Counted from the first letter of the stretch, positions 14,244 to 63,755 are shown. The stretch: DNA of 63,755 nucleotides from Bacteroidaceae bacterium (GCA_045654445.1 JAZONI010000128.1:1-63755), one strand, 5' to 3'. Numbers and translations: made by a program. The notes: a model not told the origin generated them from the sequence alone.

Positions 14244-15314
14244 TTATGAATGAGCAGGATGGTGTTTGTGGCTGTTCCTGAAAAGACGATTAATGATCAG
14301 TTCAATAACCAAGGGGACCGCAGCGCCAACTACCGAATAGAGGATCCACCACCCATGTCGTGCGCTATGAGGAACAGGGAAGGCTAACAAATCTTGATGA
14401 GACATCACTCCTATAGTCACTAATAATAAAGTTAATAACTTAAAGGAGAGAAAGTGCCATATCATAATATGTAAAGTACGTTTGCCTATGTAGTCCAAGG
14501 CATTTGAAATAGTTGAATGCTGCAGGAAGGTCGATATCTGCATCACCATGATGCAACCAGACAAGGCAATTACCCAATATAGGAATATTTGCCATGTATC
14601 TACCGTATGCATTTTAACAGGCATATATATGCTACCCGCAATTGTTAAAACTGCACCTATCAACCAAAGGCATTTGTTTAGCTTGAGTTGTTTCATTTCT
14701 GGACTATATAGTTTGTATAGGTAGCCAGAGAGAAAGAATGTCAAACATAGAAAGGTCAATTTATATATAATGCCAGTAATATGTAGATTAATGCTATAAC
14801 TTAAAATTGTGAGGAACACAGTCAATAGAAGGGCTGACACTATGAATGGAGTGTTTTTATCAATATTCCTTCTCTTACATACAGTCTGGTGTAGTTTCAG
14901 TATTATCCATCCTATAATAGTCACACGTATCAGTTGCTGCAGAAACCAAAATGTACCCAACATATCTTCAGACTGCGCCATAAGTCCTGATAATAGTATC
15001 CTCTTCAGGATTTCCGACCATGTATATTCTGTTGCTTCAAACCCCGCGAGGAACAATAAATTGTGCAATAGGATGAAGATGATGTTCCATTTTAAGAAGG
15101 GCCACCAGAGTGATTTCACCTTTTTCTTCAGAAAAGAGATAAATGAGCATAGCCCTTTCTCATTAAAGAGGTAGCCCGAAACAAAGAAGAAGAAAGGCAT
15201 GTGAAACATGTATAACCAATCCTTTATGGCCTTAGGACAGGCACTATGCCCTATTACCATCAGCAGGATGCAAATCCCCTTTCCTATTGATATCGCTTTA
15301 TTATGACTATTCAT
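14244..15314 (-). CDS. Acyltransferase-3 family membrane O-acyltransferase
   Basis: 356 aa and about 10 TM helices. The N-terminus IGKGICILLMVIGHS...FHMPFFFFVSGY is typical of acyltransferase family 3. It is divergent from the glycan operon. Confidence 0.75.
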   Translation of the reverse strand: MNSHNKAISIGKGICILLMVIGHSACPKAIKDWLYMFHMPFFFFVSGYLFNEKGLCSFISFLKKKVKSLWWPFLKWNIIFILLHNLLFLAGFEATEYTWSEILKRILLSGLMAQSEDMLGTFWFLQQLIRVTIIGWIILKLHQTVCKRRNIDKNTPFIVSALLLTVFLTILSYSINLHITGIIYKLTFLCLTFFLSGYLYKLYSPEMKQLKLNKCLWLIGAVLTIAGSIYMPVKMHTVDTWQIFLYWVIALSGCIMVMQISTFLQHSTISNALDYIGKRTLHIMIWHFLSFKLLTLLLVTIGVMSHQDLLAFPVPHSARHGWWILYSVVGAAVPLVIELIINRLFRNSHKHHPAHS

Positions 15315-15530
15315 CTATCCTATATTTATCAATCCGCTGTCAGATTTGCTCTATTCTCTTATTATTTGGTAGGAGGCTAAATCGTTAAAACGACCTTATT
15401 ATTTGACAAGGCGAAAGTACATAGAATATCTGATATGACAAAGAATGCGGGAGAAATGTTAGCTCAGTATTTTATATACCCCATTTTTAATAAAAAAAGC
15501 AAATGCGGTGGCAAACTCACTTTTTCTTAT

Positions 15531-15538
15531 TAACTTTG
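15531..15538 (+). promoter_or_regulatory. Putative -7 box TAACTTTG for the first glycan-island operon
   Basis: Exact TAnnTTTG match 45 nt upstream of ATG 15583, in a 268-bp divergent spacer. Confidence 0.4.
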
Positions 15539-15582
15539 TCAAATTAATATAGTTGGACATAAAATATTATTAGATATAAGTA

Positions 15583-17400
15583 ATGCAAGCAATCATATTA
15601 GCAGCGGGTATGGGTAAGCGCCTTGGCGAACTCACCAAGAACAATACCAAATGTATGGTGTCTGTTAATGGCGAACGCTTAATAGATCGTATGCTAACTC
15701 AGCTCTCCTCACGAAGTTTGTCACGTGTGGTGATTGTGGTCGGTTATAAGAAGAATGAGCTGATTAGTCATATAGGCGACCGATATGATGACCGTATAAA
15801 GATAGAGTATGTACATAACGATATCTACGATAAGACAAACAATATATACTCCCTCGCATTAGCTAAGCAGTATATGCTTGAAGAGGATACGTTGTTGTTG
15901 GAATCGGATCTTATCTTTGATGACAATATGCTTGATCTTATTATCAACAATCCTTATCCCAATTTGGCGCTTGTTGCCAAATACGAGACCTGGATGGATG
16001 GTACGATGGTACGTATATCAGAGGATAATGACATCATGAGTTTCATTCCGAAGAAGGCTTTTAAATATTCAGAGATAGAGCACTATTATAAGACTTGCAA
16101 TATATATAAATTTAGTCGCGAGTTTTCGTCAACGCAGTATGTGCCCTTCTTGGAGGCCTACAGCAAAGCGATGGGTAATAATGAGTATTATGAACAGGTG
16201 CTTCGCGTGCTTACTGCCCTTGACCGTTCAGACTTGAAAGCACTACCCATAACTAATGAAAAGTGGTATGAAATAGATGATGTACAAGATCTTGATATTG
16301 CTGCAACAATGTTTTCGTCAGAGGATGAGTTGCTTGGCAAGTATTATCGTCGTTATGGTGGCTATTGGCGCTTCCCCCAGCTGAAAGATTATTGCTATCT
16401 GGTGAATCCCTACTACCCAAGTCCCAAGATGAAGGATGAGTTGCGGGCCAATTTCGACGTATTACTTACTGAATATCCTTCGGGGATGTATGTCAATTCC
16501 TTATTAGCAGGTAAGTATTTCGGAATCAGCCAAGATTATGTGGTGGTAGGTAATGGCGCTGCAGAGCTTATTAAGAGCTATATAGAGAATCATGTGGAGG
16601 GAAATATTGGTATCATATTCCCTACATTTGAGGAGTATCCCAATCGTGCATTGGCAGAGCGTATTATTAAGTATGTCCCCAATAATGCAGACTTCTCTTA
16701 TACAGCAAAAGATATCCAAACATTCTATGCAGATAAAGAACTCTCAACTATTCTCTTGATTAATCCAGATAATCCATCAGGAAACTTCATCCCTATGGCT
16801 GAGTTGTTGCCATTGATTGAATGGGCACATGAGCGCGGTATCACGATGGTTGTGGACGAGAGTTTTGTGGATTTTACAAATGATTTTGCTAATAATTCGC
16901 TGCTGCACAATAACGTGCTAGAGACACATAGTAATCTTGTTGTCGTAAAATCTATCAGCAAATCGTATGGTGTACCTGGATTGCGTTTGGGAATTCTTGC
17001 CTCGGGGAATAACGATTTAATCACACGTTTGAAGAAAGAGGTAGCGATATGGAATATCAATTCCTTTGCAGAGTTCTATATGCAGATTTTCGGTAAGTAT
17101 GAGAAAGATTATTTCGTTGCTTGTCAGAAGTTTATCGAGGAACGCGACATTTTCTTTGATGAGTTGAAAACTGTTTCATATTTGCGCGTTATACCTTCGC
17201 AAGCCAATTATTTCCTATGTGAAGTGACGGATAAGTATACGGCAACCGAACTAACCCAATTATTATTAAAACAATATAATATCCTTATCAAAGATTGTGG
17301 TACTAAATCAGCTTTTGCAGGTAAGCAATATATTCGTATTGCCATTCGCGACAGGGCTGATAATGCCTACTTTGTAAAAGCATTAAAAGAATTGTCATGA
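15583..17400 (+). CDS. Fusion protein: LicC/MobA-like nucleotidyl(cytidylyl)transferase + class I/II PLP-fold (HisC/CobD-like) domain
   Basis: The N-terminal ILAAGMGKRLG...NGERLIDR is a nucleotidyltransferase signature. The C-terminal half has LINPDNPSGN and SISKSYGVPGLRLG (PLP-Lys motif). Its stop overlaps the next start (ATGA at 17397-17400). Confidence 0.75.
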   Translation: MQAIILAAGMGKRLGELTKNNTKCMVSVNGERLIDRMLTQLSSRSLSRVVIVVGYKKNELISHIGDRYDDRIKIEYVHNDIYDKTNNIYSLALAKQYMLEEDTLLLESDLIFDDNMLDLIINNPYPNLALVAKYETWMDGTMVRISEDNDIMSFIPKKAFKYSEIEHYYKTCNIYKFSREFSSTQYVPFLEAYSKAMGNNEYYEQVLRVLTALDRSDLKALPITNEKWYEIDDVQDLDIAATMFSSEDELLGKYYRRYGGYWRFPQLKDYCYLVNPYYPSPKMKDELRANFDVLLTEYPSGMYVNSLLAGKYFGISQDYVVVGNGAAELIKSYIENHVEGNIGIIFPTFEEYPNRALAERIIKYVPNNADFSYTAKDIQTFYADKELSTILLINPDNPSGNFIPMAELLPLIEWAHERGITMVVDESFVDFTNDFANNSLLHNNVLETHSNLVVVKSISKSYGVPGLRLGILASGNNDLITRLKKEVAIWNINSFAEFYMQIFGKYEKDYFVACQKFIEERDIFFDELKTVSYLRVIPSQANYFLCEVTDKYTATELTQLLLKQYNILIKDCGTKSAFAGKQYIRIAIRDRADNAYFVKALKELS

Positions 17401-18410
17401 TGAGGACAGTATGTATTTGTGGAGGTGGTTCGTTGGGGCATGTTATAGCTGGCTATCTAGGCACAAAAGAAAATGTCTCTGTAAATATTTTAACACGAAA
17501 ACCCGAGTTGTGGAAGCGCGAATTGTGTATATCTACTCCTGAAGGTGATGTGCTGAAAGGTAAACTTAATATTATCAGTAATAAGCCCGAAGAGGCATTG
17601 CGTAATGCTACCATCGTGCTTTTGTGTTTACCAGGCTATGCAATCAAGAATGAGCTGCTTTATATAAGGCCCTATCTGACCGCACAGACATATGTGGGTT
17701 CTGTATTCTCTTCTACAGGTTTTTTCTTTGAGGCCTTGGACCTGCTCGAAGAGAATGTCCCTTTATGGGGATTTCAACGTGTGCCTTTTATTGCTCGTAC
17801 AGACAAGTATGGTGAGAGTGCCCACCTGTTGGGATATAAAAGCGCACATAACATCGCTGTTGAACGTAGCAATAATAAAGAAGTTTTTCGTCAACTTATC
17901 GAAGAATTGTTTGATGTACCAGTGCACTTACTAAATAACTATTACGAGGCTAGCTTTACCAATAGTAATCCGATTCTACATCCTTCGCGTTTATATACCT
18001 TGTTTAAAGATTGGAACGATAAGGTGTATTATGACCATCAGTATCTATTTTATGAGGAATGGACAGATGAGGCCTCGGAATTATTGATAGCATTGGATAG
18101 AGAATTATTTAAGATATTGGCATATTTGCCTGTTTCGACAGACTATCTAATGCCAATACTCCCTTATTATGAGAGTACTGATGCGCAAAGCCTTACCCGG
18201 AAGATACGCTCGATAAGTGGTTTCAAGGGTATTAAAGCTCCAATGACCTGTTCTGAGAAAGGCTGGCAGCCTGATTTGAATAGCCGCTACTTTCAAGAAG
18301 ACTTTATGTATGGTATACGATATATCCATCAAGAGGCACACAAATTAGGTGTTGATGTACCGTTGATTGATAAAGTATACGATTGGGGAAAGGGCTTGAT
18401 TAAAGGCTGA
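17397..18410 (+). CDS. NAD(P)-dependent octopine/nopaline-dehydrogenase-family reductase
   Basis: 337 aa with an N-terminal Rossmann motif (VCICGGGSLGHVIAGYL). Its length and layout fit the opine-DH / glycerol-phosphate-DH-like family. It is translationally coupled to the upstream fusion gene. Confidence 0.6.
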   Translation: MMRTVCICGGGSLGHVIAGYLGTKENVSVNILTRKPELWKRELCISTPEGDVLKGKLNIISNKPEEALRNATIVLLCLPGYAIKNELLYIRPYLTAQTYVGSVFSSTGFFFEALDLLEENVPLWGFQRVPFIARTDKYGESAHLLGYKSAHNIAVERSNNKEVFRQLIEELFDVPVHLLNNYYEASFTNSNPILHPSRLYTLFKDWNDKVYYDHQYLFYEEWTDEASELLIALDRELFKILAYLPVSTDYLMPILPYYESTDAQSLTRKIRSISGFKGIKAPMTCSEKGWQPDLNSRYFQEDFMYGIRYIHQEAHKLGVDVPLIDKVYDWGKGLIKG

Positions 18411-18456
18411 AATTCTCCTTAAATGTTATTAGTATATTTTTTTAAGCTGTTGAAGA

Positions 18457-19992
18457 ATGTCCTCAGTCAACCAGAAACGTATAGCTAAAAACACAGCCTT
18501 ACTCTATGTGAGGATGTTGTTTATTATGGTTGTCAGTCTGTATACCTCTCGTGTCATATTGCGCACTTTGGGTGAGATTGATTTTGGACTTTATACAGTA
18601 ATTGGTGGTATAGTTGTAGCTTTTTCGTTCCTTAATGGCGTGATGTCCTCGGCCTGTAGCCGTTATTTTGCTATTGAGATTGGAAGGGGGGACGATGACG
18701 CATTACGTAAGGTTTTTAACTTGAATGTTACTATATTTATTCTTCTAGGTGGGATTATCCTGTTATTAGCAGAGACTATTGGGCTTTGGTTTTTAAATCA
18801 TAAGATGGTGATACCTTCCGATAGAATGGAGGCTGCACAATGGGTGTATCAATGCTCTATTATCGCCTTTATCATAAATATGTTTGCAACTCCCTATCGT
18901 TCTGTGATAACTGCGCGAGAGAATATGAAGGTGTATGCTTATTGCAGTGTGGTAGAGGTGATATTGAAATTGGCGATTGTATATCTGTTGGTGGTATCTC
19001 CCTTTGATAAGTTGATACTTTATTCTGTATTGATGGTTAGCATCACTGTAGGGACTAGCTTGTTTTATGCTCTATATTGTCGGCGTTACTATGCCGAATG
19101 CCGCTATTCCTTCTATTGGGATAAGCCCCTCTTTAAGGAGATTGTAGGCTATACAGGATGGCAGGTTATTGGTGTAGCATCTGATATCGGGCGTAATCAG
19201 GGTGTGAATATCATTCTGAATATGTTCTTTGGTTCCATTGCCAATGCTGCGCGCGGTATAGCATACCAAGTATTTATGAATATTAACCAGTTTGTGCAGA
19301 ATTTTGTTATAGCATTTAGTCCACAGATTACCAAGTCCTACGCGGTAGGTGATAGAGAAGGGATGATGAAATTGGTGTTTCAGAGTTCGAAGTTTTCATA
19401 CTACCTATTGTATATGCTTATTCTTCCTGTTTGCATGGAGACTTCCAAGATATTGGAGATTTGGTTAGGTGATGTGCCTAAAGATACGGTTATCTTCTGT
19501 CAATTGACGTTAATTGCCGCGCTTATAGATTCGTTGCTATATCCATTGCTCACGGCTATTCGTGCTACGGGTAAGGTGAAATGGTATCAAATACTGGTAG
19601 GTGGTACTCTGCTGCTTACAGTGCCTATATGCTATGGTTTGTTCAAGTGGGGTAATCTTCCTGCTACTGCTGCTTTTTATGTAGTGATAGCAACATCTAT
19701 TGTCGCACAGATACTGCGTGTCGTAATTATGAGCCATTTGCATAAGATGAGTATAAAAGATTATGTTCAAGCCGTATTACAGCCTATATTGTTAGTAACT
19801 ATACTATCTGCAATTGTTCCTATGGTACTTAAATTAATTTTATCACCTAGCCTCTGGAGCACTTTGTGCTGTATAGTAATGAGTATAGCCTCTGTAGGAG
19901 TAACAATATGGTTGGTAGGCCTTACTGCTACAGAACGTTCTCAAATTTGTGATGTAATATCAAAGTATCTTGTTAAGTCTAAATCATCATGA
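18457..19992 (+). CDS. wzx: Polysaccharide flippase (Wzx / MOP superfamily)
   Basis: 511 aa with ~12-14 TM helices. The N-terminus KNTALLYVRMLFIMVVSLYTSRVILRTLG is typical of O-unit flippases. Confidence 0.75.
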   Translation: MSSVNQKRIAKNTALLYVRMLFIMVVSLYTSRVILRTLGEIDFGLYTVIGGIVVAFSFLNGVMSSACSRYFAIEIGRGDDDALRKVFNLNVTIFILLGGIILLLAETIGLWFLNHKMVIPSDRMEAAQWVYQCSIIAFIINMFATPYRSVITARENMKVYAYCSVVEVILKLAIVYLLVVSPFDKLILYSVLMVSITVGTSLFYALYCRRYYAECRYSFYWDKPLFKEIVGYTGWQVIGVASDIGRNQGVNIILNMFFGSIANAARGIAYQVFMNINQFVQNFVIAFSPQITKSYAVGDREGMMKLVFQSSKFSYYLLYMLILPVCMETSKILEIWLGDVPKDTVIFCQLTLIAALIDSLLYPLLTAIRATGKVKWYQILVGGTLLLTVPICYGLFKWGNLPATAAFYVVIATSIVAQILRVVIMSHLHKMSIKDYVQAVLQPILLVTILSAIVPMVLKLILSPSLWSTLCCIVMSIASVGVTIWLVGLTATERSQICDVISKYLVKSKSS

Positions 19993-56042: not shown

Positions 56043-56083
56043 ACAAATGGGTGACCCGTGGGTCACCCATTTGTCGTTTCTGT
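56043..56083 (+). terminator. Terminator-like hairpin after the DUF2795-like gene
   Basis: Perfect 14-bp stem acaaatgggtgacc / ggtcacccatttgt with loop cgtg, followed by a weak T tract cgtttctgt. Confidence 0.6.
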
Positions 56084-56173
56084 ACATTGGGTTGCTCAGA
56101 GGGAGCAAGAGGAAGCGGGCAATTTCTTGAATCTATATTTCCCTATCTCCGCGTTTATGCGTATCTTAGCAAC

Positions 56174-57817
56174 ATGAAACATCGAGTAGCGCTATACTTA
56201 CTCCTCGTAGCCACCCTCTGCATGGGATGTGGCGGAAGCCTCAGTATGCGCCAACTAGAGCAATTGGAGGCACGGATGAACGATGCGCCGGACTCGGTGC
56301 TCACCGTGCTTACCGCTACCGACATGCCGCGCTGGGGCGAGCGTCGTGCGCTGTATGCCCTGCTGCGCACACAAGCCGACTACAAGTGTTTCGTACCCAT
56401 CACCTCGGACAGCCTCATCCGCTATGCCACCGACTACTATGATGGCAATCGCAAGAGCTACCGTGCAGCCATGGCCCACTACTCCTTGGGATGTGTATAC
56501 TCCGAGCTGAAGGACGATGCTGCTGCCATCGAAGCTTACCTACGGGCTCAGAGCCTTTTTCCCGATACTACGGTACGCTACTATCGATTATGCTATCAGA
56601 ACTTGGGACACCATTACTTAAAGAAGAATATGGCTGATGAGGCATTAACAGCATACACGCTTTACCATAATTCTGCAGAAGGCAACGAACAATTATGTGC
56701 AAGTATTGGCTTGGCACAATCTTATATTCACAAAGGACATTCGAAAGAAGCTGGTAAAATTTTAAAGGATTTACTCCTTTATCCCGATAACATTGCTGCA
56801 AAAGAACTTAAAATTATTCTCTTCGAGTTGGGAAAGATTGAGTATGCATTTAATAGGGATTACACCAAAGCCGAAGAATATTTTGACCAGCTTATCGCAT
56901 TGTACAACGAAAGTGAAGTAGCTGCTGCCTATTGGTTCAAAGGTGATATCGCTGAAACACGCGGAGACACGGAATCAGCCATACAATATTATAAAAGAGC
57001 TATGGCAGATGAAAACAACACCTATCTCCTCTATAATTGTGCCCGTAGCTTACAATATCTATCCATGGACTCCATTAAGCAGCCCGAGCTATACAATTAT
57101 GTAAAGCTCTTCGAGCAGATGGGCGATTCCATCCACCGCATTGAGCGCCGTACCGAGATTGACGAGATACACACCGCCCACGCCATGGAGCTGCATCAGC
57201 GTGAACTATCGGAGAAGCACAAAAGATTCATGTACATCGTCACATTGCTGCTCGTATGCCTACTGGCAACTATAGCTATCGGCGTGCTCCTTGTCGAGCG
57301 TCGTCGCAAGCAGCACTACTTCCATCTGCAACAAGAACTGCAGCGCAACCAGGCCAAGGTGTACAAGATGTACGAGTCCATCGAGGAGAAGCGCGACAAT
57401 GGAGCACTCATGCGCGAGCAGGTGCTTACGCTCTATCGCGCCAACCTGAGCGGTAGTATCGATCTTTTCCATCGTGAGAGTTGGCACAGACGACTGCAGC
57501 AACTCAGCGAGCTGCGCAGCAAGGACGTTCCCTCATTCACCATCAAGGAGCGTGAGCAATTGGCCGAGGTGCTCGAGCGCTGCTTCATCACCGTCATCAC
57601 CAACCTGCGCGACGAGGCAGCAAAACAAGACGGACGACTCAGTGCCGAAGACATCCACCTCTGCCTGCTGCTCTCGCTCGGATATTCCATCGGTGTCATC
57701 CGCGAATGCCAAGCCGCAGCAAGCGATGATGTCATCCGCAAGCGCAGAGTTCGACTCTCAGGCAAGCTACCCGAAGACCTCTTACAAGCAATCCAAAAAC
57801 CAGCCACAAACACCTAA
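56174..57817 (+). CDS. Membrane-anchored TPR sensor with cytoplasmic coiled-coil and LuxR/GerE-like HTH (one-component regulator, tentative)
   Basis: Signal/lipobox (LCMGCGG), ~330 aa of TPR-like repeats and one TM (MYIVTLLLVCLLATIAIGVLLV). The C-terminus LSAEDIHLCLLLSLGYSIGVIRECQAAASDDVIRKRRVRLSGKL resembles a LuxR-type HTH. Start moved to ATG 56174, because the track's 56051 start lies inside the upstream terminator hairpin. Confidence 0.6.
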   Translation: MKHRVALYLLLVATLCMGCGGSLSMRQLEQLEARMNDAPDSVLTVLTATDMPRWGERRALYALLRTQADYKCFVPITSDSLIRYATDYYDGNRKSYRAAMAHYSLGCVYSELKDDAAAIEAYLRAQSLFPDTTVRYYRLCYQNLGHHYLKKNMADEALTAYTLYHNSAEGNEQLCASIGLAQSYIHKGHSKEAGKILKDLLLYPDNIAAKELKIILFELGKIEYAFNRDYTKAEEYFDQLIALYNESEVAAAYWFKGDIAETRGDTESAIQYYKRAMADENNTYLLYNCARSLQYLSMDSIKQPELYNYVKLFEQMGDSIHRIERRTEIDEIHTAHAMELHQRELSEKHKRFMYIVTLLLVCLLATIAIGVLLVERRRKQHYFHLQQELQRNQAKVYKMYESIEEKRDNGALMREQVLTLYRANLSGSIDLFHRESWHRRLQQLSELRSKDVPSFTIKEREQLAEVLERCFITVITNLRDEAAKQDGRLSAEDIHLCLLLSLGYSIGVIRECQAAASDDVIRKRRVRLSGKLPEDLLQAIQKPATNT

Positions 57818-57934: not shown

Positions 57935-57969
57935 CAGCGTTTTTTATAATCATTAAAATTAAATTCTGT

Positions 57970-58308
57970 ATGAAAAAAGTTATTATGTTTGCTGCGCTGC
58001 TCTGTTGCGCATTGTCGGGTTTTGCCGAGAAGAAACCTATTAGAATAGAGATAGATGAACGGCCTCTTGAACGTACCGAAATTCAATTACCCACCGTCTC
58101 TATTGAGGAGAACCTATTGACCATTGAGTTCCCCTCAAGCACCACCTTCAGCGTGTCTATTGTGAGCAATGCCGGTGAAATGGTATACTCCGGTACATAC
58201 AGTGCAGAAATGGCGATCCTCACCTTGAGCAATCTTTCTGCAGGCGAGTACACCTTGGTTATCAAGGATGGAAGCCATGCCTATAGTGGTGAGTTTGATG
58301 TAGAATGA
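57970..58308 (+). CDS. DUF3244-like small exported beta-sandwich protein
   Basis: 112 aa with a signal peptide. LLTIEFPSSTTFSVSIVSNAGEMVYSGTY...LSNLSAGEYTLVIKDGSHAYSGEF is the pattern I associate with DUF3244. A -7 box lies at 57927-57934. Confidence 0.6.
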   Translation: MKKVIMFAALLCCALSGFAEKKPIRIEIDERPLERTEIQLPTVSIEENLLTIEFPSSTTFSVSIVSNAGEMVYSGTYSAEMAILTLSNLSAGEYTLVIKDGSHAYSGEFDVE

Positions 58309-58327: not shown

Positions 58328-60130
58328 ATGATGAAAAAGAAATTTATTTTGGCTATCTTTGGCATTAGTTTGCTATTTACGGCATGCCAAGAAGAAACGT
58401 ATTTCAACGAGTATTGTGGGGATGACAGCAGTTCGTCTATACTGACCGAAACGATGAAACTGATAGGTGACAACTACGACCATGTGACCTTACCTGACTT
58501 AGGGAAAACCTTGGGTGGAAACACTGCTACCCGTGGACGTGGCAGCAAGAAGCACTCCATGTCTTTGGAGGATGAGGATTTCACCTTCGACTGGAACAAT
58601 GCAGAAATCATCAGTAGCAGTAAGGCTGAAGCCGCCATCGTGTCTGTGAAGCAAAACAAGGAGATAGCTTTACAGAGCGTAGTGGCGAAAGGGAATCTCC
58701 ATCGCGAAGAGACCACACCGTTACACTCCATCCTCTATGTACGCAAGTTTCTCAATGACGGGAAATCGTATGCCCATATCCTCTCCTTTGCGCCAGACAG
58801 AGACTATGCCAACGCTTGCGAAGAGCGGGGCGAAGAGATGCAGCTATACCCCAATCCACAAGGGAGCAACTATAGCGGTATACTCTTTGTTTCCAACATT
58901 TACGGCGAGATTTCCCACGGCATACGTTATGAGAATGGCCGCATGTGCCACTACATCCTGCCCCGTTCGGAGAAGAACAGGGATTTCATAGAGAAGTACA
59001 GAAGTGAGCACTCCGAGTGTCACGGCACCGAACATTGCGACTCAGCGCATACACACACGAAAATGAGCATGAGTTTCATTACCGTCAGCGGCGCCACTCG
59101 CAGTACCTATTCCACCCGTAGCGAGTACACTGGTGGTGGCAGCAGCGGTGGCAGTGGTTACACTTGCAGCTTCTGCGGAAAAGATGTTTATGATTGTACT
59201 TGCGTAGAGATTGTGGCCTGTGGCGTATGCAAGAAGGACCCCTGTGTATGTTATGAAAACATGGAACCGGAAGAGGAGGAAAGATGTGTTTATTGTGGAT
59301 TCCTGAAAGAATACTGTCAATGCTATAATGATTCTTGGCAAGATGATTATGGTAACTCGCATGGGCCTAATCCAGGAAATCCCTATCCCAATAATCCTGG
59401 CAATAACTCGGGAGGGAATTCGGGGAATGATGGAAACACTAATTCTAAGCCGAGTGAAGATGTACTATTGTTAGGCAAAATAAGTTCCACGATAACTGGT
59501 GCAAATATTGATAGACTGAATTCTGCATTAGCAAGTTTTAAAATAAATCCTTTTTGTGCAAAGATTTATGCACTGCTATCGGCTGAGGATATAAACCCTG
59601 ATGTCACGTTTTCTATTGAACAGCATTATGATAAAGATAACAACAAGATCGAAGCAGGCTTTATGCCAGAATACAATAAGATTGTATTCTTCAATGGCAC
59701 TTATATCGATTATGAGCACATATTGGAAGAGCTGATACACGCGACTCAATTCCATTGTTTTGACAGTGAGAAATTCACAAATTCAAAAGGCAATATCGAG
59801 TTAGAAGCTAAAATGACTAAAGATCTTATCCGTCATTTAACCTATGGGTGTTGTGATACCTACTTGACGAGTTTTTACGACATAAATAGCGAATTAATGA
59901 AGGAGTATACTGAATGGTTATATTATGGAGATAATACTGAAAATAAAGAAAACCCTGAAAAGCGTAAGCCTAAAGATTATAGCAATTATGATTCTTGGTA
60001 TCAGAAATTATTGCCAGACTTTAATTATCCAGGAGTAACTGTAAATATGAAAGATACTACCCATCCTTTTTTAGATGAGTTTTATAAAGAAATAAAAGAC
60101 ATAAAAATAGAAGACAATGAAGACAATTAG
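58328..60130 (+). CDS. Modular surface lipoprotein: N-domain, 3x Cys-knuckle, G/N/P linker, AT-rich C-terminal domain with EELIHxxQ motif (candidate effector)
   Basis: 600 aa. The lipobox LLFTAC is followed by QEE (acidic surface-export-like signal). C280-C332 carry three CxxC-x(4-6)-CxC units. aa 340-376 are Gly/Asn/Pro-rich. aa ~378-600 are encoded by markedly AT-richer DNA. Confidence 0.75.
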   Translation: MMKKKFILAIFGISLLFTACQEETYFNEYCGDDSSSSILTETMKLIGDNYDHVTLPDLGKTLGGNTATRGRGSKKHSMSLEDEDFTFDWNNAEIISSSKAEAAIVSVKQNKEIALQSVVAKGNLHREETTPLHSILYVRKFLNDGKSYAHILSFAPDRDYANACEERGEEMQLYPNPQGSNYSGILFVSNIYGEISHGIRYENGRMCHYILPRSEKNRDFIEKYRSEHSECHGTEHCDSAHTHTKMSMSFITVSGATRSTYSTRSEYTGGGSSGGSGYTCSFCGKDVYDCTCVEIVACGVCKKDPCVCYENMEPEEEERCVYCGFLKEYCQCYNDSWQDDYGNSHGPNPGNPYPNNPGNNSGGNSGNDGNTNSKPSEDVLLLGKISSTITGANIDRLNSALASFKINPFCAKIYALLSAEDINPDVTFSIEQHYDKDNNKIEAGFMPEYNKIVFFNGTYIDYEHILEELIHATQFHCFDSEKFTNSKGNIELEAKMTKDLIRHLTYGCCDTYLTSFYDINSELMKEYTEWLYYGDNTENKENPEKRKPKDYSNYDSWYQKLLPDFNYPGVTVNMKDTTHPFLDEFYKEIKDIKIEDNEDN

Positions 60131-60641
60131 TTTTGTATTAATGACTGTAGCATTGATTTTCTCATTTGAAATGAAAGCTCAATGCTCATATGAAAAATCC
60201 GGGAATCTTTTTGAGTTACGATATACTCCAACGTCAAAAGAATCTAAAGGTAACCTTATGAAATTCAAAACAGGTGACCCAAACTATGAATATCTACAAG
60301 CAGAAGTATACAATCAACTTGTGCTATGCAACTATCAAAAACAACTATCTGATGCTTTTGCGGATGTATTGCCTATTGAATTGCGAAAATCGATGAAGAA
60401 TTTGAAGATTTTCATGCGTTTCAAAATGGATGTTTCTGGCAATATTCATGACATAAGTTTTACATCTAAAGAGGATTTTCAGCACATAATTACCAAAGAA
60501 TGGTTGGAAATGATAGTAAACACCATACAATCAATAAATGTATCAATAACAGTAGATGAAACAAAAATAGAGTCGTATTATAAGGATAAGGAAGGTTTGT
60601 TTTGGGTTCATTTCACCTTTCCACCTTATTATTGGAAATAA
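60117..60641 (+). CDS. Small exported protein, 14-nt overlap with upstream lipoprotein gene (candidate cognate partner/immunity)
   Basis: 174 aa with a signal peptide (MTVALIFSFEMKAQ). It has the same low-GC composition as the 3' cassette of the upstream gene. Its ATG 60117 lies inside the upstream ORF, whose stop is at 60128-60130. Confidence 0.6.
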   Translation: MKTISFVLMTVALIFSFEMKAQCSYEKSGNLFELRYTPTSKESKGNLMKFKTGDPNYEYLQAEVYNQLVLCNYQKQLSDAFADVLPIELRKSMKNLKIFMRFKMDVSGNIHDISFTSKEDFQHIITKEWLEMIVNTIQSINVSITVDETKIESYYKDKEGLFWVHFTFPPYYWK

Positions 60642-60688
60642 CAGAAATAATACTCCAATAATATCTATAATTGTTTAATATCCGCAAT

Positions 60689-62134
60689 ATGCCCACCCTC
60701 TTCACAACCCAACAGTCATCAGCAAGTACAGCGATAATTCGTTCTCTTGTGAAGGGGGCTATTGCCTTTGCTTGCCTGCAAGCCACTATCGTCTATTTGC
60801 AGATGATAGGGCTTGCATCCTCCAACCACGACACGTTTGCCGTGACTGGAACGTTCGGCAATCCAGCTCCTGTTGGAGGATTCTTGGCTATCTGTGCATC
60901 CTTGGCATTGCATCAGAGCTTCTATTCCACCAAGCGTTGCCCGTGGGTCGCCATTACCTGCTACCTATTGGTAGCCTGTGCACTGACCGACTCGCGGGCA
61001 GCTCTGTTGGGATTCATCGTAGCTATGGTGGTAGTCTTGCTTGTGAGGTTTCGCATCCCGAGCAAGCGGCTCAAGTATTCAATCTTTATCGGGCTTCCCA
61101 TTGTGGGTGTCTTGTTGGTTGCGGGCATGTATCTCTATCGCCCACAATCGGCCGACGGGAGGTTGCTTATCTGGAAGATATGCGTTAAACATATCATTGC
61201 CGAGAAACCATTGTTTGGACATGGCATGGGCAACTTTCACCGCGAGTATATGCCGGCGCAGGCTACGTACTTTGCATCGGGTCGTGCTACAGAGGCTGAG
61301 ATGTTGCTTGCATCAGACAATACACATGCATTCAACGAGTTTATACGCATTGCGTGCGAATATGGTATAATGGGAGTATTGCTGAGTGTTCTTCTTTTGT
61401 TTGTCATCATCTATAGTGGTGTCAATGAGTTTACCTCGCTGCGCGGTGGGGCTGTCGTAGCATTGGTGTGCGGCATCGTCTTTGCCTGTTTCTCCTATCC
61501 CTCCGATGTGCCGTTGCTTTGCCTGTTGTATACTGTATTGATAATCTGTGCCCTGCCACCGCTACCATTCGATAGGCGTAAACGGCATATATTGTATATT
61601 GGTATCAGCATCGTTGCCATCGTCCTTATTACCAGCAGCGCATCGCATGGTATTCGCTATCATCGTATGGAGAAAGCCTTGTCGAAACTCTTGGTCAGCG
61701 ATGACAAGGACAACAAGGCATATATCAAGAATGAGATCATAAACATTGCCGACAATGAGCGCATCCTCTCCCAATATGCCTACACATTATGTAAGAAAGG
61801 CCAATACAGGGATGCCATCCCTATACTGGAACGGAGCATATCACTGTTTCCTACGGCTGCAAAGGTGCTGGACTTGGGCGATGCCTACAAGGAAACCGAG
61901 CAATACGACAAGGCTGCCGAATGTTACGGAACGGCTGCCAATATGCTCCCTGCATATATCACTCCACCCTACAAGTTCTTTTCGTTGTACGAAGAACTGG
62001 GCATGAGCGATAGGGCACTCGAATATGCCGAACATATAGACACAATGAAGGTAAAGGTAGCGAACAAGCGAACCGAGAATATAAAAAAAGAGATATCGAT
62101 GTTTGTACTAGCTAACCCACAATCTTATAGGTAA
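60689..62134 (+). CDS. O-antigen ligase/Wzy_C-family membrane protein fused to C-terminal TPR repeats
   Basis: Polytopic N-terminal part with LTDSRAALLGF and NTHAFNEFIRIACEYGIMG (Wzy_C-like loop). The C-terminal ~130 aa are TPR-like (GQYRDAIPILERSISLFP...EQYDKAAECYGTAANMLP). Start at ATG 60689. Confidence 0.7.
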   Translation: MPTLFTTQQSSASTAIIRSLVKGAIAFACLQATIVYLQMIGLASSNHDTFAVTGTFGNPAPVGGFLAICASLALHQSFYSTKRCPWVAITCYLLVACALTDSRAALLGFIVAMVVVLLVRFRIPSKRLKYSIFIGLPIVGVLLVAGMYLYRPQSADGRLLIWKICVKHIIAEKPLFGHGMGNFHREYMPAQATYFASGRATEAEMLLASDNTHAFNEFIRIACEYGIMGVLLSVLLLFVIIYSGVNEFTSLRGGAVVALVCGIVFACFSYPSDVPLLCLLYTVLIICALPPLPFDRRKRHILYIGISIVAIVLITSSASHGIRYHRMEKALSKLLVSDDKDNKAYIKNEIINIADNERILSQYAYTLCKKGQYRDAIPILERSISLFPTAAKVLDLGDAYKETEQYDKAAECYGTAANMLPAYITPPYKFFSLYEELGMSDRALEYAEHIDTMKVKVANKRTENIKKEISMFVLANPQSYR

Positions 62135-62143
62135 CAACAAAAA

Positions 62144-63755
62144 CATGAAGATTAAGTGCACAATCATTATCACCCTCATCGCAACGGCAGCCATAGTCAC
62201 ATTCCTCCTCGTATACCACGCCTCGCACAGCACCGATGAGATGGTGCGCCGCCGTGCGGTGATAGCTTACTACCACTTCATGCGCTGCAGTGCCGAGAGA
62301 CGCGAGGCGGCACGCTACCTCCTTGACAATATGCCCTATCACTATGGCTATGGCGTGACAGTACACGACAGCAAGGAGGTGAAGCGCTGGGCAAAGGAGA
62401 CTACAGAGACCTTGCGCAACCTGCTGGATGAGTATGGGCTATATCAGATTCCCAGCGACACCATCCGCTCCCTCTGTGACGAGCGTCGTGCCGACAGCCT
62501 CGCCATGCAACGCATCGACAAAGAAGTGAGGTCGGAATTCATCCCTGTCACGGACGGCAGCCAAGTGACGACCGCTTTCCTCATCCGCCACATCAACCAT
62601 GCTTTCAAGGTGTGGCGCACATTACCATTTGCCAAGGATCTCACCTTCGATGAGTTCAAGGAATATATACTACCCTACAAGGCATTCAATGGCTATGGTT
62701 TCTTAGAGTCGGCCGATACCTATGCACACCTGTTCGAAGGGTTGATTGATGTGGATTCTATCAATAGCCGGGAAGATTGCATCCGTGCCTATAATTATGT
62801 ATTGCGCACGTTGCGCGACCTCACCGGACATAAGGAGTGCGAGGGCCGCAAAGGACTCTACGACCTCTTCTTCAGCCGTGCTCATGCCTGTGATGATCTG
62901 GCTGCGTATGCCTGCTGTATATTACGTTCAATGGGGGTGCCTGTTACCGTGGAGCATACCGTAGGCTATCGCTCTTTCACGGGCATGCACTATTTCTGCT
63001 CGCTCTACGATGCCGACAGCAAGGACTGGGAGACCTATAACCCTGAAGCCTCAGACCCTACGTTATATTGGGACGAAGAAGAGAACCTTAACATCTATCG
63101 CAACACCTACGGAGCACAACGGGATACACCCTACTTCCTCCATGCCGAGGGTGAGCATGTGCCCGACGAACTTTCCAATCCCTGCATGATAGATGTGACA
63201 GAGCATGTGAAGCCTATTCATTCGGTGACGTTACCTATCCACGGCTATGGAGAGAGCAACCTTGCCTACCTCGCCACCTTCAACCGCGCCATGCCCGATG
63301 CACTGCTGCATACGACATGGGGTGTCATCGACAAGGAGTATAGTATGGTTACTTTCGAACATGCAATGCCTCATGTACTCTACTTCCCCGTGTACTATCG
63401 CGGCACAACGATGGAGTTTTTCGGCACCCCGTTCTACCTTGACGAGAGAGGCTGCATGAACTACCTACCCCATGTGGATAGCGACAGTGAAGGGACAATG
63501 GAGGTAAGCCTCACGCGCAAGTACCCCCGCAAGAAGAACATGATAAAGGCTGCCGAGGAATTGGTGGGCAGTGTGTTTATCGGCAGTAACGACCGCAACA
63601 TGAGACAGGTCGACACGCTCTACCGCATTACTACCGCTCCCGACCCTGCATTTATGGAGTATCGCTTCGCCCATCCCAAGGCATATCAGATATACCGCTT
63701 CGATGCCTCTCCAGCTTCGGGAAAGGCACACATCGCCATGCTCGAATGGGTGACC
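62144..63755 (+). CDS. Transglutaminase-like cysteine-protease-fold protein with discoidin-like C-terminal region (3' end outside window)
   Basis: Frame hand-checked as open from ATG 62144 to the window end. N-terminal TM, core FSRAHACDDLAAYACCILRSMGVPV...GMHYFCSLYDADSKDWETYNP (Cys-His-Asp layout). It starts 10 nt after the upstream stop. Confidence 0.7.

Follow-up and report, generated by a model that had tools for sequence, protein, structure and literature searches.

Lipoprotein polymorphic toxins have been described in Myxococcus, where the toxins of the SitA/SitI pairs are delivered by TraAB outer-membrane exchange (PMC5562445, PMC8546572). Here we analyse a lipoprotein gene and its overlapping partner gene (58328-60641, plus strand) in a 63,755-nucleotide (nt) stretch of DNA from a Bacteroidaceae bacterium (GCA_045654445.1 JAZONI010000128.1:1-63755), which in its full length we call the window. 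The pair resembles SitA/SitI in architecture only, without sequence similarity, and the likeness extends to the lipobox, the conserved N-terminal region (the 'escort' region of SitA), the swappable C-terminal parts (toxins in SitA), the adjacent gene (an immunity gene in SitA/SitI) and the presence of multiple diversified copies. SitA toxins act in the cytoplasm and their immunity is cytoplasmic, whereas all partners recovered here have signal peptides and the lipoprotein N-terminus carries a Bacteroidota surface-export signal.

Within the Bacteroidales, BSAPs are surface lipoproteins with an export signal that kill related bacteria (PMC12853789). Like the window protein, they combine this signal with a variable C-terminal domain (CTD), and they illustrate that the export route can serve antagonism. 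In contrast to the enzyme-like CTD and coupled partner found here, BSAPs are MACPF pore formers in which the variable CTD binds a receptor and no immunity gene co-varies; the window protein gave no Pfam match to the MACPF domain (PF01823). Modular bacteriocins, among them colicins, pyocins and ColM-family proteins (PMC5821083), are alike in placing their entry and receptor parts first, the killing domain last and the immunity gene directly downstream, in exchanging killing domain and immunity gene jointly and, among envelope-acting members, in having exported immunity proteins. They are soluble and freed by lysis or dedicated export, whereas the window protein is predicted to be lipid-anchored, and neither Pfam nor PDB sequence searches found homology to colicin, pyocin or ColM domains. 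Amidase and M23-type effectors of type VI secretion systems (T6SS) pair with periplasmic immunity proteins, and in sister alleles of the window gene an intact M23 peptidase is likewise followed by a signal-peptide protein, but M23 is not the tail type of the window protein, and the pair has no T6SS, Rhs or PAAR element attached or close by. Finally, the Bxa polymorphic toxins of Bacteroidaceae (PMC11699363) share the plan of a conserved N-domain, diverse toxin tails and immunity genes, but they are prophage-encoded, with an ADP-ribosyltransferase tail and cytoplasmic immunity, whereas the window family is chromosomal and was not found in phage or viral collections.

The pair thus follows the logic of polymorphic toxins and their immunity proteins on an undescribed Bacteroidota lipoprotein scaffold, with uncharacterised tail and partner families, and is a member of none of the systems compared. 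It shows the hallmarks of such pairs: a conserved N-terminal region with alternative tails, joint replacement with sharp borders and a co-varying downstream gene. Our interpretation, which infers toxicity, immunity and delivery from sequence, is that the 600-amino-acid (aa) protein is probably a surface-exported polymorphic lipoprotein effector and the 174-aa protein its cognate periplasmic protector. The parts of the pair are:

58328-60130, plus strand: lipoprotein open reading frame (ORF), 600 aa
58328..58399, plus strand: candidate lipoprotein export signal, comprising signal peptide, the lipobox LLFTAC with Cys20, and QEE as acidic residues at +2 to +4
58400..59164, plus strand: N-domain, about aa 25-279, largely beta-strand, 59-95% identical among homologues whatever the tail type
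59165..59323, plus strand: Cys block, aa 280-332, 11 Cys in three CxxC...CxC units, possibly of the zinc-knuckle or ribbon type
59345..59455, plus strand: Gly/Asn/Pro-rich linker GNSHGPNPGNPYPNNPGNNSGGNSGNDGNTNS, about aa 340-376, containing the left recombination boundary at about nt 59432
59433..60686, plus strand: exchangeable AT-rich cassette, CTD plus partner gene, seen as the blastn gap against the closest loci, GC 0.32
59459..60130, plus strand: CTD, aa 378-600, of a family without a name, putative effector enzyme
59726..59824, plus strand: polar constellation E467 E468 xx H471 xx Q474 ... E491 x E493 x K495 ... D499, on two consecutive predicted helices
60117-60641, plus strand: partner ORF, 174 aa, signal-peptide-like N-terminus, putative periplasmic immunity protein or inhibitor

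Joint exchange of the C-terminal domain and its partner gene

Every part that the initial annotation had proposed for the 600-aa ORF, namely a lipobox, an N-domain, a Cys block with linker and a CTD, is present in the sequence, and its description of a 174-aa downstream ORF with a 14-nt overlap and a signal peptide of its own agrees with the coordinates and, by reading, with the N-terminal sequence. The lipoprotein begins with MMKKKFILAIFGISLLFTAC followed by QEET, and the region of signal peptide, lipobox and QEE is kept in 27 of 28 complete homologues. The overlap, ATGAAGACAATTAG, runs from the partner ATG at 60117 to the lipoprotein TAG at 60128-60130. The partner itself starts with MKT, a hydrophobic run (ISFVLMTVALIFSF) and EMKA followed by Q, a plain signal-peptide-like arrangement in which reading of the N-terminus found no lipobox. 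When the effector, the CTD alone, the partner and the neighbouring genes were scanned with Pfam, NCBIfam, PADLOC and PHROGs, neither effector nor partner was assigned to a family at significance, and PDB sequence searches with the full lipoprotein, a CTD profile and a partner profile gave nothing beyond a chance-level resemblance of the Cys block to the eL43 zinc ribbon (E 0.04-0.08). The earlier view that the proteins match no named family therefore stands for both, and we found no description of the family in the literature.

Among 5.8 billion proteins searched we found 29 homologues, nearly all of them from metagenomes of gut or rumen, which together with more than 20 related loci form our comparison set. 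The N-terminal region (aa 1-335) of these homologues is 59-95% identical to that of the window protein, against 12-69% for the CTD. Thus identity to P0002 is 95% over the N-domain but 27% over the CTD, with corresponding values of 93% and 27% for P0004 and 93% and 38% for P0001, while P0005, which has the closest tail (69%), is 61% identical in the N-domain. In P0011 (N-domain 88%) the tail is an M23 peptidase, a type found in 6 of the 29 homologues (PF01551, with HxxxD and HxH intact), and the distant homologue P0029 has a third, unassigned type of tail. The Pfam scan did not find PF01551 in the window protein's own tail, so that M23 occurs in sister alleles only.

The same pattern is seen in the DNA. 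In blastn alignments with L005-L007 and L012-L013, identity is 85-92% from 58316/58331 to nt 59432, nil from there to 60687 or 60760, and 82-89% thereafter, at the start of the gene for a Wzy_C protein. The breakpoint at nt 59432 lies just past the linker codons for ...NSGGNSGND, where the protein alignment diverges too. Against the M23 locus L003 the window breaks at 59235 and 60688, while two loci of the same cassette type (L008 and L011) align through the whole cassette at 66-70%. In L004, two modules stand in tandem on one contig, with N-domains that are 100% identical, CTDs that are 32% identical and partners that are 27% identical. Scans of metagenome contigs and genome contigs added four further loci (L001, L002, L021 and L022, two per collection), none with a new cassette type.

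These alignments show that the CTD and the downstream gene have been exchanged together, through recombination within the DNA coding for the linker and at the Wzy_C gene start. They likewise show that the alternative cassettes carry either divergent subtypes of the CTD seen here, which we call EExxH after its central motif, joined to a homologous partner, or an M23 peptidoglycan peptidase whose partner is unrelated, and that the lipobox, N-domain, Cys block and G/N/P linker make up a conserved scaffold. The initial annotation had predicted that about aa 1-340 would be kept while the tail is swapped and that tail and downstream gene would be replaced together; the first prediction is borne out by P0002, P0001 and P0011, and the second by the blastn borders and by the covariation described below. 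As a separate observation, one metagenomic homologue (P0026, 703 aa) has the effector and the downstream partner fused in frame, which may reflect read-through, a sequencing error or a real fusion.

For each of the 19 effector genes recovered, the next ORF encodes 169-195 aa, has an N-terminus resembling a signal peptide and either overlaps the effector stop or abuts it, the spacing in the 19 pairs ranging between -17 and +32 nt. Across 12 unique pairs, partner identity rises with CTD identity (Pearson r=0.85, Spearman 0.67), while it shows no such relation to N-domain identity (rho=-0.09). The partners of EExxH tails are mutually homologous and share the motif FKxDxxGExYDIxF, and a hidden Markov model (HMM) built from nine of them and run against the 413 ORFs of all loci recovers partners only, including all close-relative partners, two partners in L018 (E ~1e-3) and the one in L024 (E 0.012); partners of M23 tails were not recovered in this search. 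The type of partner is specific to the type of CTD, which argues against a general lipoprotein-export chaperone and fits an inhibitor or an immunity protein. In L018 and L020 the pair occurs without the surrounding operon and the partner genes are duplicated. At L020:980-4009, the locus of P0029, a Cys block of like kind and a Gly-rich linker are followed by two tandem paralogous signal-peptide proteins of 223-225 aa.

The cassette also stands out in base composition. The GC content is 0.475 in the N-terminal part (nt 58328-59362; 0.557 at third codon positions, GC3), 0.323 in the CTD (aa 378-600; GC3 0.308) and 0.314 in the partner gene, compared with 0.481 for the whole window. The tract 59459-60641 is the lowest-GC 1.18-kb stretch of the window, a value as low being reached in only 1 of 1252 sliding windows (z = -2.8). 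Hand counts in the initial annotation, of 32/60 G+C at 59041 and 18/60 at 59521, are exact, and the drop it had placed inside the lipoprotein gene, continuing through the partner, is reproduced by the computed values. Such a drop is common to all cassettes examined, since 12 of 12 distinct ones have 30-36% GC in host loci of 39-54% GC.

The C-terminal domain family

With a profile built from 18 tails we searched 1.84 billion representative proteins and found a Bacteroidota-wide family of 538 clusters (50% identity) at E<=1e-3, and of 224 clusters at E<=1e-10. In all 150 listed of the 538, the domain is C-terminal, in proteins of about 240-650 aa. The ten clusters that were looked up, which include proteins of a Bacteroides graminisolvens metagenome-assembled genome (MAG) and of Fibrella aestuarina BUZ 2 (FAES_4000), are all unnamed or labelled 'hypothetical protein', and none of the 64 family members scanned with Pfam reaches the cut-off. 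A polar constellation EExxHxxQ...ExExK...D, in which the first motif reads EELIHATQ in the window, is invariant in the 18 CTDs, and an E, the H, the Q, an E and the D (E468, H471, Q474, E493 and D499 in the window) remain invariant in 64 distant representatives.

AlphaFold2 modelled the CTD with a predicted local distance difference test (pLDDT) score of 89.7 and a predicted template modelling (pTM) score of 0.89. In this model the predicted order is two helices, a small three-stranded sheet, the EExxH helix, the ExExK...D helix and a helical C-terminal part, with the constellation helices at model residues 85-101 and 110-129. The invariant acidic and histidine residues and the confident model together suggest that the CTD is enzyme-like. 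Foldseek found no match for the CTD model at E<=0.001 in the PDB or BFVD. Below this threshold, weak matches in BFVD include the minimal zincins, with two IrrE-N-like and two SprT-like entries (E 0.09-0.9) and others named metalloprotease or metallopeptidase, and Pfam matches below cut-off were obtained to DUF6782, a putative metallopeptidase, in two family members (E=0.0056) and to Tox-MPTase4 in one (E=0.054).

These weak hints point in the direction of the zincins. In thermolysin the gluzincin signature is HExxH...E166, i.e. HExxH followed by Glu after about 20 residues. The window CTD resembles zincin/gluzincin metallopeptidases (Tox-MPTase4, DUF6782) in its sheet, its xExxH helix and a Glu in the next helix 20-22 residues past the His; in the model, E491 and E493 lie 20 and 22 residues past H471 in the next predicted helix. 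It differs in having a near-invariant Glu in place of the first His (EExxH). On balance we slightly favour a metal-dependent, zincin-like hydrolase as the most likely identity of the CTD. Three other assignments were rejected: a PD-(D/E)xK nuclease reading of E-x-K, for which the motif sits in a helix and the partner is exported; an LAS/M15 'ExxH' peptidase, in which the motif order is wrong; and a lysozyme or transglycosylase, without a fold match.

The initial annotation had named a housekeeping fold, such as a SusE/F-like one, as the outcome that would speak against an effector. The CTD was modelled with high confidence (pLDDT 89.7) and had no PDB match at E<=0.001, and for a SusE/F-like or nutrient-binding domain there was no Pfam or NCBIfam match, nor a Foldseek match in the PDB for either the CTD or the N-domain. 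The CTD is clearly of neither a SusE/F-like nor another nutrient-binding fold.

Scaffold, export signal and genomic neighbourhood

The N-domain was modelled with moderate confidence (core pLDDT about 70-86, whole model 60), and its Foldseek search against the PDB without a match at E<=0.001 is accordingly a weak negative. An HMM of the N-domain finds it in 23 of 50 long CTD-bearing representatives, which indicates that scaffold and tail are an old combination. The 11 cysteines of the Cys block are invariant across 30 sequences, while in the wider family the block varies, being hugely expanded in P0081 and absent in many others.

The published export signal of Bacteroidota lipoproteins consists, after the lipidated Cys, of a polar or basic residue and then two acidic ones (PMC5080379). 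The window's C20-Q-E-E follows this rule, most homologues have CQE[ED] or CQQD, and in the wider family D or E occurs at +2 to +5 in 66 of 74 lipobox-like N-termini. Because CQEE matches the published signal, the lipoprotein is likely to be displayed on the surface, and this signal couples surface exposure with packing into vesicles (PMC6222051, PMC10319031).

The genes around the pair are:

56171..57817, plus strand: TPR protein, one transmembrane helix, helical tail at the C-terminus, TPR Pfam matches, alternative upstream GTG at 56051
57967..58308, plus strand: small exported DUF3244 protein, PF11589 E=1.3e-10, 19 nt upstream of the lipoprotein gene
60689..62134, plus strand: Wzy_C (O-antigen-ligase-like) membrane protein with C-terminal TPRs, PF04932 E=3e-18, right edge of the cassette
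62145..63755, plus strand: 5' part (537 codons) of a conserved downstream gene for a protein of 639-697 aa, frame open as far as the window end

Gene order in the Bacteroidaceae MAGs is constant, running from the TPR protein with its transmembrane helix through DUF3244, effector, partner and Wzy_C-TPR to the 639-697-aa protein; the window conforms, and the order is kept across at least eight loci. The TPR gene, which starts this conserved neighbourhood, precedes the locus in L002, L004, L014, L016 and L021 and is partial in L005-L006. The DUF3244 gene keeps its position in L002, L004, L014 and L016 and has a weak match, below cut-off, to a type IX secretion system (T9SS) sorting-domain profile. 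In every one of the longer loci the cassette is followed by the Wzy_C gene, where similarity to related loci begins again; its mechanical ORF start is a TTG at 60671, the recorded protein starts at the ATG at 60689 and homology resumes at 60687. The last gene (62145-63755) has 79% nucleotide identity to L005 5939-7499 by blastn, and its 639-697-aa homologues have weak Transglut_core or F5/8-type-C matches only, the window fragment having no Pfam match.

The pair also occurs outside this setting. In the cultured Fibrella aestuarina BUZ 2 (L023:4001-5985, HE796683.1), FAES_4000 is followed by an overlapping 169-aa signal-peptide ORF, a single partner with no operon. Since the pair stands without the operon in L018, L020 and Fibrella, it is an autonomous unit. 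In the B. graminisolvens MAG (L024:64-5993) a 727-aa protein comes first, then Wzy_C, the lipoprotein and a partner of 156 aa. The pairs of Fibrella and of this MAG belong to distant members of the family and could give access for experiments.

Other observations concern the frame itself. At L005:1310-5879, the TPR/DUF3244/Wzy_C-TPR frame holds a different cargo set, consisting of three lipoproteins (one of 333 aa whose C-terminus is Gly-rich, one of 206 aa and a thioredoxin-like one of 197 aa) and a multi-pass membrane protein of 95 aa, which suggests that secreted factors of several kinds use the frame as a platform. A transcriptome table from B. thetaiotaomicron lists BT3221-BT3223 as DUF3244, a DUF4848 protein and a hypothetical protein in one iron-responsive unit (PMC10434189), and a model organism may thus have an analogous locus of the 'DUF3244 plus cargo' kind. 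A relation of the N-domain to DUF4848, suggested by the BT3221-23 gene order, was rejected, as there was no Pfam match even at E<=1. Within the N-domain, a D-S-[A/T/V] triplet at 59039-59047 (aa 238-240, CDSAH) is kept in almost every homologue and falls within a loop modelled with low confidence. The general O-glycosylation sequon of Bacteroidota is D(S/T)(A/I/L/V/M/T), which the triplet matches, and an O-antigen-ligase-like (Wzy_C) TPR gene always adjoins.

The remainder of the window is ordinary chromosome, with methionyl-tRNA synthetase (MetRS), phosphoglycerate mutase and a glycan cluster. A second low-GC tract (14244-19992, GC 0.35-0.38) is probably a surface-glycan locus and codes for an Acyl_transf_3 protein, a fusion of nucleotidyltransferase and aminotransferase, an octopine-dehydrogenase-like protein and a protein of 511 aa without a Pfam hit.

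Proposed mechanism, rival explanations and implications

In the mechanism we propose, the lipoprotein would be exported by Sec, lipidated and flipped to the cell surface, as expected from the fit of CQEE to the Bacteroidota export signal, and would probably be carried on outer-membrane vesicles. The CTD would act as a zincin-like hydrolase, with the Glu of the next helix, 20-22 residues past the His, as third ligand, and would hydrolyse an envelope or periplasmic target of competing Bacteroidales, while the M23 alleles would cleave peptidoglycan cross-links. The partner, with its own signal peptide and presumed translational coupling, would bind and block the CTD in the periplasm of the producer during transit and would shield sibling cells. 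The N-domain and Cys block could serve receptor binding or entry, as in modular bacteriocins, and the TPR regulator, DUF3244, Wzy_C-TPR and 639-697-aa proteins may regulate, modify or release the effector. Entry into the target cell is the weakest link of this mechanism. In its most far-reaching form, the pair could be the founding example of an undescribed Bacteroidota-wide weapon class, in which surface-exported lipoprotein toxins, most commonly with a new EExxH...E...D hydrolase fold that has its own periplasmic immunity family, would in Bacteroidaceae be modified, released or delivered by a dedicated accessory operon (TPR regulator, DUF3244, Wzy_C-TPR and a large lipoprotein-like protein), by a vesicle or contact-dependent route distinct from those of T6SS, T9SS, BSAPs and bacteroidetocins; we put this forward tentatively and regard it as rather doubtful.

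Several findings weigh against an effector with a cognate protector. A surface-exposed lipoprotein has no obvious route into the periplasm of a target cell. In Bacteroidaceae the pair is constantly linked to the Wzy_C-TPR gene and the large downstream protein, and so might serve surface assembly instead of antagonism. The CTD departs from the canonical HExxH motif, its first position being E in at least 90% of the 64 representatives, and this, together with the lack of a Foldseek match at E<=0.001 in the PDB or BFVD, weakens the catalytic assignment. Moreover, of the 150 representatives listed (538 in all), the 148 new ones are proteins of lipoprotein type or fragments, with none on another delivery scaffold (T6SS, Rhs or contact-dependent inhibition, CDI) and no trafficking-domain Pfam match in the 64 scanned, so that the sharing of toxin domains across systems that is usual for polymorphic toxins is missing. 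Finally, no relatives were found on plasmids or phages (tblastn) or on viral contigs (IMG/VR scan), and a Bxa-type plasmid or prophage origin is thus not supported.

In one rival explanation, the lipoprotein is a self-directed envelope hydrolase restrained by a periplasmic inhibitor, which remodels the cell's own peptidoglycan or outer membrane, for example during vesicle formation or cell separation, and the diversity of the cassettes reflects drift, or selection that has nothing to do with antagonism. M23 peptidases also occur as housekeeping enzymes of the cell wall, the sequence of the partner places it in the periplasm, and the locus is chromosomal, among housekeeping genes and not on mobile elements, all of which would suit this explanation. 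However, unrelated catalytic domains at one locus are not normal for housekeeping enzymes, and tandem copies with 100% identical N-domains and 32% identical tails, or AT-rich cassettes with sharp borders, are atypical of them. The family is also sporadic, a close N-domain relative being detectable in only 2 of 185,579 representative species genomes, and we consider a self-directed role improbable.

In another, the lipoprotein is a host- or diet-directed protease or adhesin on the surface or on vesicles, under antigenic or substrate diversification, and the partner is a transit chaperone or a zymogen-type inhibitor. An N-terminus that predicts surface and vesicle display and a possible metalloprotease-like motif are compatible with such a role, and an extracellular substrate would suit the absence of an evident route of entry into bacteria. 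Yet the alternative M23 tail indicates a bacterial cell-wall substrate, the duplicated partners beside one effector in L018 and L020 are typical of immunity genes and not of chaperones, and the family has members in Fibrella aestuarina, which is not host-associated; we therefore give this explanation equally little credence. That the pair belongs, as cargo or subunits, to a pathway of surface glycan or protein modification defined by the TPR regulator, DUF3244, Wzy_C-TPR and 639-697-aa genes, its tail being a structural or recognition module, would account for the gene order kept across at least eight loci, the conserved D-S-[A/T/V] in a disordered loop that matches the O-glycosylation sequon and the other cargo set in the same frame at L005, but is very unlikely given that the pair exists without the operon (L018, L020, L023) and that the invariant acidic and histidine residues and the M23 alleles point to catalysis and not to structure.

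Antagonism among gut Bacteroidales shapes their communities, and the arsenal known so far consists of T6SS effectors, BSAPs, bacteroidetocins, BcpT, BfUbb and CDCL toxins. If our interpretation of the pair as a polymorphic effector and its protector is true, lipid-anchored, cassette-swapping effectors with their own immunity family would add a further mechanism of antagonism, and could account for strain-level incompatibilities that are visible only in metagenomes. Because the 538 clusters reach cultured organisms (Fibrella aestuarina BUZ 2) and a Bacteroides graminisolvens MAG, the hypothesis is directly testable. The Wzy_C-TPR neighbour offers a lead on the role of O-antigen-ligase-like proteins in Bacteroidota, and the CTD, if it acts as proposed, would represent a new enzyme fold whose envelope target may be a useful antibacterial vulnerability.

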